A stretch of DNA of 64,000 nucleotides. It comes from an uncultured bacterium. Lineage in GTDB: Bacteria > JAGOEH01 > CAYLKS01. Of the stretch, positions 1 through 35,135 are shown piece after piece (positions within the stretch are counted from its first letter, which is position 1; every line of letters begins with the position of its first letter). A program made the translations under genes and the position numbers. The DNA is taken from contig CAYLKS010000005.1 in NCBI GenBank assembly GCA_964384205.1, positions 3,567 to 67,566 on the forward strand. The letters run 5' to 3'. The notes under the pieces were generated by a model that searched no databases, was not told the origin of the DNA, and saw only the letters and a list, made by a program, of their open reading frames with translations.

Positions 1-1446
1 GCAAGAATTTTTTCTAAAGCACTCAACTGCATAAACGGCCCTACTGTAACACCTTGCAATAAATGTGATAGCTGTACTCAAATTAACGAAGGCAGATCTT
101 TTGATGTATTAGAAATCGATGGCGCATCTAACAGAGGTATAGACGAAATAAGAGCTCTTAAAGAAAATATAAATTATTCACCAAGCTCTGGCAAATATAA
201 AATATATATTATCGATGAAGTTCATATGCTAACTGAACAAGCATTCAATGCTCTTTTGAAAACATTAGAAGAACCTCCACCTCAAGTTATTTTTATATTG
301 GCTACTACTGAACCAAATAAAATACCAATTACTATTCTTTCACGATGTCAGAGATATGACTTCAAAAGAGTCTCAATAAATGAAATATCTCAGCAATTAA
401 AAAATATTGCTAATAATGAAAATATTAATATTGACGATGCTTCTATAAAACTAATTGCAAGAGCAGCAGACGGCAGTGTAAGAGATGCTGAATCTATTTT
501 CGATCAAGTTATATCTTTTTGCAACAATAATGTAAAAGCAAGTGATGTGGAAGAAATTCTCGGCATTACCGGGAATCATTTCTTTGTAAAACTATTCTCA
601 CTATATTTTGAAAATAATCTTTACGAAGCACTAAAAACAATTGATGAATACTTATATTCTGGCAAAGATATTAAAGAATTTTTAAACGGGTTCTCATTAT
701 TTTTAAGAAATTTAATTATTTTAAAACTAAATGAAACTCCAGATAATATTTTTGGCATAGCAGAAGACGAAAAAGATGAAATAATAAATATCGCTAAAAA
801 TTTCTCTTTTATCGACCTATTCAGAATCATGAATATCTTTTCTAAATATGAAAAAATAATCCGTTATTCTCCAAATAGTTTAATACAACTGGAAATGTTC
901 ATAATAAAATTATTTACTATAAACAAACTTGAAGATATAGAAAATATTATTCTAAAATTAAATAATTACCAGGATCAATATACACCAACTCAAGAAAACA
1001 AAAAAAAAACATTTGAGATAAAGAATATTAACAATCAAAATAAATTTTGGCCCGAAATATTAGATATAATAAAGAAAAAAGATGCTGTTTTATATGCCCA
1101 TATGCAAGAAAGCATAATAACTGATTTTACCAATAATAAATTAAAAATTAAAATCCCTTATGCTAATGAAAGAACAAAAAAAATTATTGAAAAAAATAAA
1201 TTTATAATAAATGAAACTCTATCTTCATATCTAAATGAAAAAATCGCAATAGAAATAGAATATGATATAATAGATCACAATGAAATCTTGGAAAAAATAG
1301 AACAAGATAAGAAAAAAATAGCAATGTTAAGTCAAAATGATGGAAATAATTTGCATAAAATTTATAAAGAATATCCTATAATACAATATGCTGTCGAAAA
1401 ATTTAACGGATATTTAATAAAAAATAACTCAAAAAAAGAGAGGTAA
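1..1446 (+). CDS. dnaX: DNA polymerase III subunit gamma/tau (5' end lies outside the window)
   Basis: Frame 1 is open from base 1 (ARIFSKALNCINGPTVTPCNKCDSCTQ...IYIIDEVHMLTEQAFNALLKTLEEPPP...ILATTEPNKIPITILSRCQRYDF), giving the clamp-loader AAA+ box and sensor motifs. It sits in the conserved dnaX-ybaB-recR arrangement. The ORF-track Met at 226 is internal. Confidence 0.9.
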   Translation, partial: ARIFSKALNCINGPTVTPCNKCDSCTQINEGRSFDVLEIDGASNRGIDEIRALKENINYSPSSGKYKIYIIDEVHMLTEQAFNALLKTLEEPPPQVIFILATTEPNKIPITILSRCQRYDFKRVSINEISQQLKNIANNENINIDDASIKLIARAADGSVRDAESIFDQVISFCNNNVKASDVEEILGITGNHFFVKLFSLYFENNLYEALKTIDEYLYSGKDIKEFLNGFSLFLRNLIILKLNETPDNIFGIAEDEKDEIINIAKNFSFIDLFRIMNIFSKYEKIIRYSPNSLIQLEMFIIKLFTINKLEDIENIILKLNNYQDQYTPTQENKKKTFEIKNINNQNKFWPEILDIIKKKDAVLYAHMQESIITDFTNNKLKIKIPYANERTKKIIEKNKFIINETLSSYLNEKIAIEIEYDIIDHNEILEKIEQDKKKIAMLSQNDGNNLHKIYKEYPIIQYAVEKFNGYLIKNNSKKER

Positions 1447-29905: not shown

Positions 29906-31107
29906 TCAATAATAGAAGTAAAATCACCATCTTTTACAATGGTTTTAATTTTCATATTTTTATTAATATTATTCTTTGAATTAATTATTTTATCATCCAA
30001 AGATAAAGTAATAGAATACCCTCTATCCAAAATATTTTTAGGATTCAATGCTTCTAAATGTCTTTTTAATGAAATAACATGTTGTTTTTTTAATTCTACT
30101 TTATTTTCAAAATTATTTTTCAATCGAGAAGTTAAACTATCAATATACTGTATTTTTTGGTTCAATAAATCAATCATACGTTCATAATTTAGTATACGCT
30201 TTGCTCTTTTATACCTTTGTTTATAATTATTATAAATAGAAATCATAGTTACAACTAATTTTTGCTTCATTAATATAACTTTATTTTCTAATTCCTTAAT
30301 ATCCTTAACAGCAATCTCAGCTGCAGCAGATGGAGTAGCTGCTCGTATATCAGCAACAAAATCAGCAATAGTAAAATCTATTTCATGACCTACTGCAGAA
30401 ATAATAGGTATTTTCGATTCAAAAATAGCCCTTGCAACAATTTCTTCATTGAAAGCCCATAAATCCTCCAAAGAGCCACCGCCTCTACCAACAATTAAGA
30501 CATCAACTTTCCCATATTCATTAAATTCTTTAATTGCTTGAGCAATTTCAGCTGCAGCAGTATCTCCCTGTACCCTCACTGGTCTTAAAATTATATCAAC
30601 TGAAGGATAACGTCTTCTCAATACTTTTATTATATCTCTTATTGCTGCTCCGGTTCTTGAAGTAACAACTCCAATAATCTCAGGAAATGCCGGTATAGGT
30701 TTTTTAAATTTCTCATCAAATAATCCTTCTTGTTCCAATTTCTTCTTCAATTGCTCAAAAGCAAGCTGAAGCTCTCCTAAACCCGCAGGCATCAAAGAGG
30801 AAATTATAATCTGATAATTACCTCCTTTTTCATATACTGCTAACTTGCCAAATACATTAACTTTTAACCCATTCTCTAAATTAAATTTTATATTCTGAGC
30901 AGTAGATCTCCATATAACAGCTTGAATCTGACTCTTATCATCTTTTAGCGTAAGATATATATGACCTGAAGAATGCCTCTTATAATTTGAAATCTCTCCT
31001 ACAACATATACAACTGGAAATGAATCTTCAAGTAAATTTTTAATCTGTAATGTCAATTCATATATTGTTAATGGTTTCTCCATTAGTGAATTTTCTATAT
31101 TATTCAT
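29902..31107 (-). CDS. xseA: exodeoxyribonuclease VII large subunit
   Basis: 401 aa with an OB-fold (VVGEISNYKRHSSGHIYLTLKD) plus the catalytic core (GRGGGS). Confidence 0.9.
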   Translation of the reverse strand: MNNIENSLMEKPLTIYELTLQIKNLLEDSFPVVYVVGEISNYKRHSSGHIYLTLKDDKSQIQAVIWRSTAQNIKFNLENGLKVNVFGKLAVYEKGGNYQIIISSLMPAGLGELQLAFEQLKKKLEQEGLFDEKFKKPIPAFPEIIGVVTSRTGAAIRDIIKVLRRRYPSVDIILRPVRVQGDTAAAEIAQAIKEFNEYGKVDVLIVGRGGGSLEDLWAFNEEIVARAIFESKIPIISAVGHEIDFTIADFVADIRAATPSAAAEIAVKDIKELENKVILMKQKLVVTMISIYNNYKQRYKRAKRILNYERMIDLLNQKIQYIDSLTSRLKNNFENKVELKKQHVISLKRHLEALNPKNILDRGYSITLSLDDKIINSKNNINKNMKIKTIVKDGDFTSIIE

Positions 31108-32020
31108 TTTTTATTTTCCTATATAAAAAAGCTTTTAATGTTTGAAACATTAATAAAGAAGTTGTTATACTACCTACCCCTCCTGGAACAGGTGTTATTA
31201 AACTAACTTTGTTATAAACATCTTCAAAATCAACATCTCCAACCATCTTATGCTTACCATCAACTATAATATCATTTATTCCTGCATCTATTACTACTGC
31301 ATCTTTTTTTATCATAGATGATTTTATAAAATTAGCCCTGCCAATTCCAATTATCAAAATATCAGCATTTAATAAATATTCCTCAAGATTCTGTGTTCTT
31401 GAATGACATACAGTAACAGTAGCATTTGCATACTCATCCTTTTCTAACAACATTAAAGCCAGAGGCTTTCCAATGACAATGCTTCTATTCAAAATAACAA
31501 CATTTTTCCCCTCTGGTTTTATATCATAATATTTTAACAATGAATATATAGCCAAAGCAGTATTAGGATAAAATAAAATATTATTACCTGTTACCAGCTT
31601 GCCTAAATTCTTAGTTGACTGGCAATCCACATCTTTATATTCTGATATTGCATCAAGAATCATTTGAGTATTTAAATGCTTTGGTAAAGGAACCTGTACT
31701 TGAATTCCATCTATTTCATTAGAACTATTCAAATTATTAATCAAAGAAATCAATTCTTGTTGACTAATGCCAGGCTCAAATTTTTTTTCAATAGCATTTA
31801 GTCCAATTTTATTAAAATTTTTAATAATTGACTTAACATAATAATTAGAAGCAGGATCTAATCCAGAATTAACAATTGCCAAAGTAGGTTTTCTATCTAA
31901 TCGAAAAGCAAAATCCTTAATAATTTGTTTAATCTCTCTGGCAATTTTTCTACCATCGAGTTTTTTATCTTGAGCATAAAATTTTAAAGAATTTAAACTA
32001 CTGAGTAAATTTTCAATCAT
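31100..32020 (-). CDS. folD: bifunctional 5,10-methylene-THF dehydrogenase / methenyl-THF cyclohydrolase
   Basis: 306 aa with FolD motifs (IQVPLP.H, VVILNRSIVIGKPLA, PVPGGVG). Confidence 0.85.
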   Translation of the reverse strand: MIENLLSSLNSLKFYAQDKKLDGRKIAREIKQIIKDFAFRLDRKPTLAIVNSGLDPASNYYVKSIIKNFNKIGLNAIEKKFEPGISQQELISLINNLNSSNEIDGIQVQVPLPKHLNTQMILDAISEYKDVDCQSTKNLGKLVTGNNILFYPNTALAIYSLLKYYDIKPEGKNVVILNRSIVIGKPLALMLLEKDEYANATVTVCHSRTQNLEEYLLNADILIIGIGRANFIKSSMIKKDAVVIDAGINDIIVDGKHKMVGDVDFEDVYNKVSLITPVPGGVGSITTSLLMFQTLKAFLYRKIKNE

Positions 32021-32810
32021 AACTCTTTTTTATTGAAAACCTTTCAATACCGTTAGCCAAACCTGTTGATTTATTAATAGTTACAACAACACCTTCTAAT
32101 TTAGGTAAATTTTTTGATGAATTTAACTTCATAGGAATCTGAGTTAAAAATCTATATATACTTTGAGAAGGTTCAAACCCCATAACAGAATAATGAGCAC
32201 CTGTCATTCCGGCATCTGTTATATAAGCTGTTCCACCAGGTAATACTTCTTCATCAGCAGTCTGAACATGAGTATGAGAACCAATAACAGCAGAAATCCT
32301 ACCATCAAAATAAAACCCAAAAGCTTTCTTCTCTGCTGTTGATATGGCATGAAAATCAACAATAATGTAATTGGTTTTTTTTCTAATAAAATCAATACGT
32401 TCTTCTAATGCTGCAAATGGGCAATCTATAGGCTTCATAAAAGTTCTTCCCTCAAGATTAACAGCGGCTAATACTATTCCTTCTTTTTCTATAAAAGCAT
32501 AACCACTGCCTGGCACCTCTGTTGTATAATTCAAAGGTCTTAATAATCTGGATTCCTTTTCTAAAACGAACTCAACATCTTTTTTATCCCACACATGAGA
32601 ACCCGTTGTTATAATATCAACTCCTGACTGAAATAACTTATAAACTATATCAACCGTAATACCAAGACCACCTGCGGAATTTTCTCCATTAGCTATAATA
32701 AAAAGAGGATCATATTTTTCTTTTAAATAATTTATTTTCTCAGTAAAAAAGCTCCTACCTGCCCGCCCTACAATGTCAGCTATAAAAATAATATTAAAAT
32801 TATTTTGCAT
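32013..32810 (-). CDS. ymdB: TIGR00282/YmdB-family metallophosphoesterase
   Basis: 265 aa, IIFIADIVGRAGR...DFHAISTAEK...GSHTHVQTAD. Conserved pairing downstream of rny. Confidence 0.85.
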   Translation of the reverse strand: MQNNFNIIFIADIVGRAGRSFFTEKINYLKEKYDPLFIIANGENSAGGLGITVDIVYKLFQSGVDIITTGSHVWDKKDVEFVLEKESRLLRPLNYTTEVPGSGYAFIEKEGIVLAAVNLEGRTFMKPIDCPFAALEERIDFIRKKTNYIIVDFHAISTAEKKAFGFYFDGRISAVIGSHTHVQTADEEVLPGGTAYITDAGMTGAHYSVMGFEPSQSIYRFLTQIPMKLNSSKNLPKLEGVVVTINKSTGLANGIERFSIKKSYD

Positions 32811-34356
32811 ATTCTATCGCCCTCTTTTCTCTAATAACGGTAACTTTAATTTGTCCCGGAAATTCTAATTCATTTTTTATTTTTTCAGCAATATTAGAAG
32901 CAAGTTCGTCGGCTCCAAGATCATCTATTTCTTTAGGATTAACAATAACTCTCACTTCTCTTCCTGCTTGTATAGCATAAGCTTTCTCAACACCTTCAAA
33001 AGAATCAGCAATATTTTCCAATCTCTCTAATCTTCTAATATATTGTTCAAGACTTTCTCTTCTTGCACCAGGTCTTGCTCCGGATATTGCATCAGCAGCC
33101 TGTACAATAACTGTAATTGGACTAATTGGTTCTACATCTTCATGATGACCGAGTATAGCATTAAGAACAATATCCTTTTCTCCATAGCGTTTCGCATATT
33201 CATAACCAATTTCTGTATGAGTTCCTTCCATATCTCTATCAATAGCCTTACCAATATCATGCAAAAGTCCTGCTCTTTTGGCAAGAGTAACATTCAAACC
33301 AAGTTCTGCAGCAATACCTGCACTAATAATTGCAACTTCTTTTGAATGAGCCAATACATTCTGTCCATATGAAGTTCTATATTTCAATTTCCCCAATAAC
33401 TTAACTAATTCTGGATGTAAATCATGTATTCCCAGATCAAATAACACATTTTCTGCCTCTTCAATCATATTCTTCTCAAATTCTTTTTCCACTTTCTCAA
33501 CAACTTCTTCTATCCTACCCGGATGAATTCTTCCATCTTTAATAAGAATTTCCATAGCTCTTTTCGCTATTTCTCTTTTTAATGTATTAAAAGCAGATAA
33601 TACAATAAAACCAGGAGAATCATCAACAATAACATCAACCCCTGTAATCTCTTCAAAATGCTTTATATTTCTTCCTTCTCTACCAATAATTCTACCTTTC
33701 ATCATATCATCATTACCTAAATCTACTGTAGAAACTGTTGAATTAACACTTACATCAGCAGCACATCTCTGTATTGCCTGAACAATAACCTCATTAGCTT
33801 CTTTTTCAGCATTTTTTATAACATTTTCTTTAATTTCCTTTGCTCTTTGTAAAGCCTCTCTTCTTGCTTTTTCCTCAACTTCTTTCAATAACAAATCTTT
33901 AGCTTCTTCTTCTGTCAATTTTGAAATTTCTTCCAATTTCTTCACTTCTTGTTCTACTAATTGACTGACTTCTTGTTCCTTCTTCTCAAGTTCTTTTTTG
34001 AGTTTATTAAGCTCTTCTTCCTTAGTACTAACATCCAATTCCTTTTTATTAATAAACTCCGCTTTCTTTTCTATTGAAGCCTCTCGCTGCATTAACTTCT
34101 TCTCAATCTCCTGAAGTTCTAACCTCTTGCTTTTAGTTTCTTCTTCAAATTTATGTTTGAGTCTATACATTTCATCTTTAGCTTCAATTGATGCTGTTTT
34201 TTTAATTAATGAAGCTTCCTTTTCCGCTTCCTCTATAATTTTTTTAGATTGTATTTCAGCATTTTGGATCTTTGTCTGAAAAATTTTTTTAGCAATAAAA
34301 AAGCCAACTCCAAAAGCCAATAAAAATCCTATAACAGAACTTATAACTGTACTCAT
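32800..34356 (-). CDS. rny: ribonuclease Y
   Basis: 518 aa with an N-terminal TM segment, a coiled coil, a KH domain (GRIIGREGRNIKHFEEITGVDV) and an HD domain (LAHSKEVA...LLHDIGKA). Confidence 0.9.
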   Translation of the reverse strand: MSTVISSVIGFLLAFGVGFFIAKKIFQTKIQNAEIQSKKIIEEAEKEASLIKKTASIEAKDEMYRLKHKFEEETKSKRLELQEIEKKLMQREASIEKKAEFINKKELDVSTKEEELNKLKKELEKKEQEVSQLVEQEVKKLEEISKLTEEEAKDLLLKEVEEKARREALQRAKEIKENVIKNAEKEANEVIVQAIQRCAADVSVNSTVSTVDLGNDDMMKGRIIGREGRNIKHFEEITGVDVIVDDSPGFIVLSAFNTLKREIAKRAMEILIKDGRIHPGRIEEVVEKVEKEFEKNMIEEAENVLFDLGIHDLHPELVKLLGKLKYRTSYGQNVLAHSKEVAIISAGIAAELGLNVTLAKRAGLLHDIGKAIDRDMEGTHTEIGYEYAKRYGEKDIVLNAILGHHEDVEPISPITVIVQAADAISGARPGARRESLEQYIRRLERLENIADSFEGVEKAYAIQAGREVRVIVNPKEIDDLGADELASNIAEKIKNELEFPGQIKVTVIREKRAIEYAK

Positions 34357-34433
34357 CTATTTTCCTCCTTTAATCGCAGTCATTTTGTTATGTTCAAATT
34401 CTTGTTTCCAATCTCAAAAATAAAAACCTATTA

Positions 34434-34590
34434 AAAAACCCCGCTTTGCCGTGTAGTTTGGAGATTTGAACCTTGCGGTTCAATTAGAGACAATCCAATG
34501 AAGCAGACAAGCCACTTCAAAAGATTGTCTCAAAATTTTGAGTGTTGGCTCAAATTTTCCCGACTATCACGAGCAAAGCAGGGTTTATTT
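34434..34590 (-). ncRNA. candidate structured small RNA (a 15-bp closing helix enclosing three hairpins); strand and class uncertain; syntenic with 6S RNA downstream of zapA
   Basis: CCCCGCTTTGCCGTG (34439-34453) pairs with CACGAGCAAAGCAGGG (34568-34583). Internal hairpins are GAGACAATC/GATTGTCTC, TTGAACC-ttgc-GGTTCAA and CTCAAA/TTTGAG. On the minus strand the helix is followed by UUUUUU. The region lies in the 228-nt gap between the zapA stop and the rny start. Confidence 0.35.
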
Positions 34591-34848
34591 ATCTAACAAA
34601 TCTTTCATGCGTTTTTCAATTTTATCTAATTTTTCATCCTGTTCTTTTTTATAGGTGAAAAATTCATCCGCAATAAAAAAAACTGCAAGCAATGCTATTT
34701 TCTCTGTTGATTGAAACGGTGCCTTACTCTCTATCTCTTTTATCTTTGTATTAACAAAATCCTCTAAATTTCTCACATATTCATCACTTGCATCTGTTTT
34801 TAAATTAAATTTATTTCCATGTATAGTAATATTTACTACTCTCTTCAT
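34585..34848 (-). CDS. zapA: cell division protein ZapA-like
   Basis: 87 aa, VNITIHGNKFNLKTDASDEYVRNLEDFVNTKI, fits the ZapA N-terminal domain, followed by a short coiled coil. Confidence 0.6.
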   Translation of the reverse strand: MKRVVNITIHGNKFNLKTDASDEYVRNLEDFVNTKIKEIESKAPFQSTEKIALLAVFFIADEFFTYKKEQDEKLDKIEKRMKDLLDK

Positions 34849-34868: not shown

Positions 34869-35135
34869 TTAATCTTCTAATAAATCTAACATTCTCTTAA
34901 TACGAACTGCAATCTCTTCTTCTTTATTCTTCAACTCACTAAAACTTTTTTCAATATCTTTCAACCTTTTATTTTCATCTTCCAAATCATTTAATTTATA
35001 TTTTAATTGCTTAATTTCATTCTCTAATTGCTCTTTAATTAATTCTAAATTCTTTTTATCTTCTTCTAATATCTTTACTCGCTGAGATAAAAAATTTATC
35101 TTACCTTCTAACTTATCTAAAATCTCAAGTTCCAC
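34869..35135 (-). CDS. coiled-coil protein (possible ZapB-like division factor)
   Basis: 88 aa, entirely heptad-repeat coiled coil (LEEDKKNLELIKEQLENEIKQLKYKLNDLEDENKRLK), lying between pheT and zapA. Confidence 0.4.
   Translation of the reverse strand: MELEILDKLEGKINFLSQRVKILEEDKKNLELIKEQLENEIKQLKYKLNDLEDENKRLKDIEKSFSELKNKEEEIAVRIKRMLDLLED

Follow-up and report, generated by a model that had tools for sequence, protein, structure and literature searches.

A very probable 6S RNA gene between zapA and rny in an uncultured bacterium related to Candidatus Delongbacteria

The non-coding gap between zapA and rny in the window (the whole stretch of 64,000 nucleotides that was analysed) very probably holds a minus-strand gene for 6S RNA (ssrS), with approximate ends at 34587 and 34433. 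The assignment is based on a covariance-model match, a rod-shaped consensus fold, conservation in orthologs with compensatory changes, and motifs flanking the central bubble that are common to Escherichia coli. The element is an ordinary member of the known 6S family, found in an uncultured lineage related to Candidatus Delongbacteria.

6S RNA is a widespread small RNA that sequesters RNA polymerase. In E. coli and Bacillus subtilis, its rod imitates an open promoter and fills the active site of the holoenzyme that carries the housekeeping sigma factor. Transcription is thereby damped when nutrients are scarce. When the NTP concentration rises, the polymerase uses the 5′ strand of the 6S bubble as a template, from which a short product RNA (pRNA) is made.

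Family Assignment and Genomic Context

The first-pass annotation of this DNA had considered 6S RNA from the position of the element after zapA, and the Infernal scan that it named as a check bears this idea out. A scan of the whole window with Rfam/Infernal gave a match to RF00013 (6S/SsrS) on the minus strand at 34587..34434, with a score of 62.3 bits against a gathering score of 46.4 and an E-value of 6.3e-10. The match spans the full model (positions 1–187 of 187), and at the gathering thresholds the scan returned three tRNAs and the 6S RNA, and nothing else. With one extra U at 34433, the gene occupies about 34433..34587 and is ~154–155 nt long. The match length of 154 nt lies inside the range of ~150–200 nt for 6S RNA, toward its short end.

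Gene calling leaves the zapA-rny gap blank, with no gene listed. The gap comprises 228 nt, as had been noted before, and extends from the stop of zapA (34585) to the start of rny (34356). The upstream gene zapA (34585..34848, minus strand) is an 87-aa ORF with a Pfam PF05164 match at E 1.1e-17, and its stop codon forms nt 1–3 of the Rfam 6S match. The downstream gene rny (32800..34356, minus strand) encodes RNase Y as a 518-aa ORF with RNase_Y_N, KH and HD domains (Pfam, E 1e-53) and begins 77 nt past the U run that ends the RNA. The earlier placement of the element directly after zapA and on the same strand is thus confirmed by both Pfam assignments.

Directly upstream of zapA lies an 88-aa coiled-coil ORF (34869–35135, minus strand) that resembles ZapB; the Pfam ZapB match is weak, with 24 bits against a cut-off of 31.5. 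The counterpart of this ORF in a more distant locus (L020) carries a precomputed ZapB match. PheT follows further upstream. Downstream of rny, a YmdB-like phosphoesterase gene (ymdB) and then folD are found, and the neighbours are all on the minus strand. Within 31100–34356 (minus strand), rny and ymdB overlap by 11 nt (32800–32810), and ymdB and folD by 8 nt (32013–32020), which suggests that the three genes form one operon downstream of the 6S RNA. FolD, a folate enzyme, is encoded two genes past the 6S RNA; in E. coli, the folate enzyme Fau is encoded directly after ssrS, which may be a coincidence.

Conservation and the Consensus Rod

An exact-protein look-up placed the window on a 95-kb ENA metagenome contig (k141_2250383), which contributed no further sequence. 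In a collection of 5.8 billion proteins, only three RNase Y relatives with more than 60% identity were found (P0002–P0004, 65–67%), and a search for ZapA homologs returned the window's own protein only. A cluster mate of P0002 is annotated as Candidatus Delongbacteria, phylum Candidatus Delongiibacteriota. The contigs of P0002–P0004 all show the order pheT, a 91-aa ORF, zapA, the gap, rny, ymdB and folD. It had been proposed that the element be checked for conservation and covariation in related intergenic regions, and both are seen there. Four distinct related loci were retrieved (L015, L016, L017 and L023), and each of them carries the 6S RNA at the zapA stop, ahead of rny. With RF00013, the orthologs L016, L015 and L017 score 62.5, 57.1 and 45.1 bits, respectively, the last of these 1.3 bits below the gathering score. 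The fifth copy, L023, comes from a metagenome-assembled genome (MAG) of Candidatus Delongbacteria and scores 142 bits with the lineage-specific model R1. The zapA stop overlaps or abuts the first nucleotides of the closing stem in the window (34585–34587) as well as in L015 (2792–2794), L016 (547–549) and L017 (2814–2816), and it takes in the initial one to three nucleotides of the 6S match in all orthologs. If zapA and the 6S RNA are co-transcribed, a ribosome that terminates at zapA would thus sit over the 5′ strand of the closing stem.

The sequences were aligned with MAFFT, four at first and then five, and the RNAalifold consensus was a rod in both cases and not a multi-hairpin fold. Its elements are a closing stem of 21 bp, a helix of 3 bp, a further one of 9 bp (nt 33–41/116–124), a bubble of ~14 nt × 13 nt and a terminal stem, and 96.8% of the cells at the consensus pairs are paired. 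The first-pass annotation had seen no obvious 6S rod in the fold. This view does not hold, since the covariance-model alignment and the ortholog consensus both give the canonical rod.

The closing stem is formed by a 5′ strand at 34564..34586 (nt 2–24, minus strand) and a 3′ strand at 34436..34456 (nt 132–152, minus strand), with 21 consensus pairs and 97.6% of their cells paired. The 3′ strand runs into the U run at 34438..34433, which is U6–U9 in the orthologs. The bubble-side helix, equivalent to P2 or the "downstream duplex" of known 6S RNAs, pairs a 5′ strand AUUUGAGCC (34547..34555, nt 33–41, minus strand) with a 3′ strand GGUUCAAAU (34464..34472, nt 116–124, minus strand), in the Rfam alignment as well as in the consensus fold. 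Its 5′ strand is invariant in the orthologs, and the UGAGCC within it is common to E. coli ssrS. The two strands of the central bubble, AACACUCAAAAUUU on the 5′ side (34533..34546, nt 42–55, minus strand) and AAUUGAACCGCAA on the 3′ side (34473..34485, nt 103–115, minus strand), are unpaired in the consensus, and the former holds the predicted pRNA start C44 (34544). The terminal (apical) stem-loop occupies 34486..34532 (nt 56–102, minus strand) and includes a 9-bp GAGACAAUC/GAUUGUCUC helix, which is the base of the 6S apical stem in the Rfam alignment.

The comparative set consists of five distinct sequences from one small clade, so that the covariation is drawn from four to five related sequences. 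In this set, 12 pairs show compensatory changes, compared with 5.1 ± 1.6 in column shuffles, none of which (0/500) reached 12. When the pairing partners were slid by one to three columns as a control, only 0–3 compensatory pairs were obtained. Nine of the 12 pairs sit in the terminal stem, where compensatory changes affect 9/14 consensus pairs.

Two Forms of the Free RNA

The fold of the single sequence is far more stable than expected by chance. The minus-strand RNA folds at −74 kcal/mol, whereas 200 dinucleotide shuffles gave −33.1 ± 3.9 kcal/mol (z = −10.6), and none of the shuffles folded as well. This indicates that the structure is real. Its minimum free energy (MFE) form is a closing helix around three hairpins, the form that had been described before, and the helices of that description are all present, with their eight arms inside the 34434–34590 span given for them. 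By their first bases on the plus strand, the arms of a 15-bp helix lie at 34439 (CCCCGCTTTGCCGTG) and 34568 (CACGAGCAAAGCAGGG), and those of a 9-bp stem at 34487 (GAGACAATC) and 34523 (GATTGTCTC). The arms of the 7-bp stem, TTGAACC and GGTTCAA, lie at 34466 and 34477, and those of the 6-bp stem, TTTGAG and CTCAAA, at 34537 and 34549; GGGG followed by six U is found on the minus strand at 34442..34433.

The two forms differ around the bubble. The Rfam alignment pairs the 5′ UUUGAGCC with the 3′ GGUUCAAA, whereas the MFE structure folds each of them into a separate hairpin with the adjacent bubble strand. One of these is UUUGAG-CCAACA-CUCAAA on the 5′ side of the bubble (34537..34554, nt 34–51, minus strand), which occurs in the MFE of three of the four orthologs. 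The other is UUGAACC-GCAA-GGUUCAA on the 3′ side (34466..34483, nt 105–122, minus strand), which is part of the single-sequence MFE. When the bubble-side helix was forced, the energy was 0–1.8 kcal/mol above the MFE. The multi-hairpin form is the MFE in three of four orthologs, by 1.2–1.8 kcal/mol; in L016, the rod is the MFE. Since the rod and the two-hairpin form are nearly isoenergetic, the free RNA is predicted to be bistable. In the bubble-side helix, eight of nine pairs never vary, and covariation is therefore silent on the choice between the rod and the two small hairpins, whose energies are nearly equal. In this model, each small hairpin is an alternative in which a bubble strand pairs with the adjoining strand of the bubble-side helix.

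Predicted Product RNA and Release

C44 of the window RNA aligns with U44 of E. coli, the established pRNA start in that species. Each is the third nucleotide after GAGCC (GAGCC-A-A-C in the window and GAGCC-G-A-U in E. coli). By analogy with E. coli and B. subtilis, the window 6S RNA would act as a promoter mimic on the housekeeping holoenzyme. The pRNA would start opposite C44 (34544) to give the product 5′-GUUGGCUCAAAUU; the homology-based prediction for its beginning is 5′-GUUGGCUCAAAU.

In known systems, the pRNA begins in the 5′ bubble strand and the polymerase transcribes into the neighbouring helix, that is, P2 or the "downstream duplex" (PMC8876501). In 6S RNAs of the E. coli type, the 3′ strand of the helix that is freed in this way pairs with the 3′ bubble strand, and the resulting hairpin promotes release (PMC8876501). 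A corresponding series of steps can be proposed for the window RNA. Synthesis of the pRNA would unzip the UUUGAGCC/GGUUCAAA helix, and the freed GGUUCAA would pair with UUGAACC in the 3′ strand of the bubble, which yields the 7-bp hairpin. Once this hairpin is formed, the 6S:pRNA complex would be released. When the 13-nt predicted template was barred from pairing, the 3′-bubble hairpin appeared in all four orthologs, which agrees with the reported release mechanism (PMC8876501). Because it forms on template blocking and its motif is common to E. coli, the 7-bp stem with its 4-nt loop is best read as a candidate release hairpin. The 6-bp UUUGAG/CUCAAA stem is best read, in the same model, as its mirror image on the 5′ side, which would be possible only in the free RNA.

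Comparison with Known 6S RNAs

The gene in the window resembles E. coli ssrS (b2911) in that both come right after zapA, in its orientation, and have a co-oriented protein gene behind them. The two RNAs also share the rod architecture, UGAGCC on the 5′ side of the bubble and UUGAACC..GGUUCAA on the 3′ side. The hairpin motif of E. coli is CUUGAACCAAGGGUUCAAGG, arranged as CUUGAACC-AAG-GGUUCAAGG, compared with UUGAACC-GCAA-GGUUCAA in the window. There are several differences. The window RNA is 154 nt long and that of E. coli 183 nt, and the missing ~30 nt correspond to the apical stem. The predicted initiating template base is C in the window, so that the pRNA would start with G, whereas it is U in E. 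coli, where the pRNA starts with A. The potential release hairpin of the window has 7 bp, as against the 9 bp reported for E. coli (PMC8876501). The zapA stop abuts the 6S RNA in the window but is separated from it by a 41-nt gap in E. coli, and the gene downstream is rny in the window and fau in E. coli.

B. subtilis 6S-1 (bsrA) belongs to the same family and has the rod and the bubble as well. In 6S-1, both arms of the 3′-bubble hairpin belong to the bubble strand, and release is aided by a "central bubble collapse helix" (PMC8876501). For both 6S-1 (PMC8876501) and the window RNA, the free RNA is predicted to equilibrate between an open form and one with a small 3′-bubble hairpin. However, the predicted hairpin of the window draws on the 3′ strand of the helix beside the bubble, a design of the E. 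coli type and unlike that of 6S-1, and the genomic context of 6S-1 also differs.

A gene array ZapB-ZapA-SsrS(-FAU1)-EVE was described as conserved in beta- and gamma-proteobacteria and explicitly not in alpha-proteobacteria (PMC7641849). The window shows the same order and orientation, with a ZapB-like gene, zapA and the 6S RNA immediately after zapA, although the ZapB assignment is weak. In contrast to the array, the window is non-proteobacterial (the nearest named relative being a Candidatus Delongiibacteriota MAG), and rny-ymdB-folD replaces fau/EVE. In the literature searched, the papers that mention both 6S RNA and zapA concern Proteobacteria only. Because the array was described only for beta- and gamma-proteobacteria, the same order in a Delongbacteria-related lineage is a modest extension.

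Distant Relatives with zapA Next to rny

An RNase Y search of genome and metagenome contigs yielded relatives at 42–63% identity only. In these relatives, neither Rfam nor the lineage-specific model found a 6S RNA upstream of rny, and they therefore provide no covariation data. In the MAGs of the Latescibacterota type and in the P0005 group, zapA and rny are adjacent with no detectable 6S RNA between them, and plain hairpins with U runs are found instead. Plain long hairpins with U runs also occupy the site in the relatives at 52–60% RNase Y identity.

In the gap of the Latescibacterota type, a hairpin of ~57–66 nt is followed by a U run; its 5′ arm is conserved (CCAYCGUUCGUGAU) and its interior is variable. 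Such hairpins are located at L001:2886–2943, L002:2890–2954, L003:2874–2939, L005:2889–2956, L008:2882–2944, L009:1680–1741 and L010:1677–1740. A 9-mer of this hairpin, GUUCGUGAU, is identical to nt 14–22 of the L023 6S RNA, in the closing stem, and close to GCUCGUGAU of the window. By a rough estimate, a shared 9-mer of this kind could arise by chance about one time in ten. The hairpin may descend from the closing stem of a 6S RNA and have been kept as a terminator or rny leader, or it could be an unrelated conserved element.

Another kind of hairpin, near-perfect and ~105 nt long, fills the zapA-rny gap at L020:2836–2945 (60% RNase Y identity), and the same is found in L021 and L022. Its internal loop is asymmetric, with 15 nt in the 5′ strand, and its terminal sequences (CCCCAC.../...GUGGGGUUUUU) are similar to those of the 6S RNA. 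No 6S similarity was detected in the L020–L022 hairpin, either by Rfam at E ≤ 10 or by model R1. When the L020–L022 hairpins and the ~60-nt hairpins of L001–L010 were tested as reduced 6S RNAs, Rfam at E ≤ 10 on these small regions gave only spurious matches of the microRNA type.

Transcription and Alternative Explanations

A promoter scan limited to the sigma-70 type found no site just upstream of the 6S RNA or between it and rny, in the window and three orthologs. A weak promoter seen by eye inside zapA (TTGAAA, 18 nt, TGT-TAGATA, ending at 34590) is not conserved in the orthologs and was not relied on. A terminator scan of the same four sequences found none at the 6S RNA; its loop limit of 8 nt excludes a structure of 154 nt. 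All orthologs have a G+C-rich base of the closing stem followed by U6–U9. From the U run to rny, the distance is 33, 59, 77 or 113 nt (77 nt in the window, 113 nt in L016 and 33 nt in L017, at L017:2968–3000). The sequence past the U run is unconserved, and the ribosome-binding site lies outside the structure. The 33-nt spacer of L017 leaves no room for a separate rny promoter, which implies either read-through or a promoter within the 6S gene.

As no promoter-like site was found, the 6S RNA is most likely derived from a zapA-6S(-rny) transcript, or else driven by a weak promoter in the 3′ end of zapA. The most economical reading, tentatively inferred by analogy, would be a zapA-6S(-rny) precursor that is processed and partly terminated at the U run. 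In E. coli, ssrS and fau form a comparable dicistronic transcript (cited in PMC7641849). The closing stem and the conserved U run would define the 3′ end of the 6S RNA, and read-through would feed rny. Co-transcription of the 6S RNA and rny is probable.

These features also lend themselves to a different explanation, namely a cis-acting 5′ leader or attenuator that sets transcription into the RNase Y gene and has no 6S role in trans. It lies on the same strand as rny and immediately upstream of it with no promoter-like site between, rny is probably read through the element in L017, and some of the transcripts could end at the stem with its conserved U run. However, the element matches the full-length 6S covariance model above its curated threshold, and the motifs that flank the bubble recur in E. 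coli ssrS, whose downstream neighbour is not rny. The spacer of 33 to 113 nt is unconserved and the ribosome-binding site is left outside the structure, and the distant relatives keep the zapA-rny adjacency without a 6S RNA. It is therefore very improbable that the element is only a leader. The first-pass annotation had offered an rny 5′ leader or an unclassified small RNA as options; the variable spacer, and the conserved U run that separates the RNA from rny, speak against both. A cis effect on rny could nevertheless exist alongside the 6S role, by analogy with ssrS-fau in E. coli.

Even less likely is an element that serves zapA only, as a transcription terminator or 3′-UTR stabilizer made of a long hairpin and a U tail without a function of its own. 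The element does begin at the zapA stop and end in a U run, and the relatives at 52–60% RNase Y identity have plain long hairpins with U runs in this place. A terminator, however, has no need of a 14 × 13-nt bubble of invariant sequence, nor would it fit the 6S model with an E-value of 6e-10. No 6S similarity is seen in the plain hairpins of the more distant loci, and the terminator scan, whose loop limit of 8 nt leaves out a structure of this size, is silent at this site.

The 6S RNA is assigned to the minus strand on the basis of the covariance-model match, the G-U pairs and the surrounding genes. The fold energy cannot assign the strand, as the plus strand folds at −67 kcal/mol (z = −10.7) and both strands thus have z-scores of about −10.6. 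A functional RNA on the plus strand, antisense to the gene cluster, is highly improbable. It would fold well, as expected for any long helix, but Rfam matches the minus strand alone, and the lineage model gives 161 bits there compared with 45 on the plus strand. Read from the plus strand, the G-U pairs that never vary (columns 8/146 and 39/118), along with several G-C to G-U changes, would become A-C mismatches. The flanking genes are all on the minus strand.

Significance

Since a standard Rfam scan names the element, the main value of the finding is the correct annotation of an intergenic region that had been left blank. The zapB-zapA-ssrS order is extended to a candidate phylum without cultured members, which bears on the age of this linkage. 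The array of ZapB-like gene, zapA and 6S RNA may be ancient and common to Proteobacteria and this lineage, with the 6S RNA as an integral part of a zapA-ssrS-rny-ymdB transcript, although this is doubtful. If it were true, the 6S closing stem and the U run would be a leaky terminator that sets RNase Y expression. The maturation of 6S RNA would be coupled to the synthesis of RNase Y, which might excise its own upstream 6S RNA, and the hairpin of the Latescibacterota type (5′ arm CGUUCGUGAU) would be what remains of the module after loss of the 6S body.

The putative release hairpin of the E. coli type in a lineage so distant would be useful for comparing how 6S RNA leaves RNA polymerase. RNase Y is the main endonuclease of mRNA decay. 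The position of the 6S RNA directly upstream of rny thus suggests a testable link between two global regulators.
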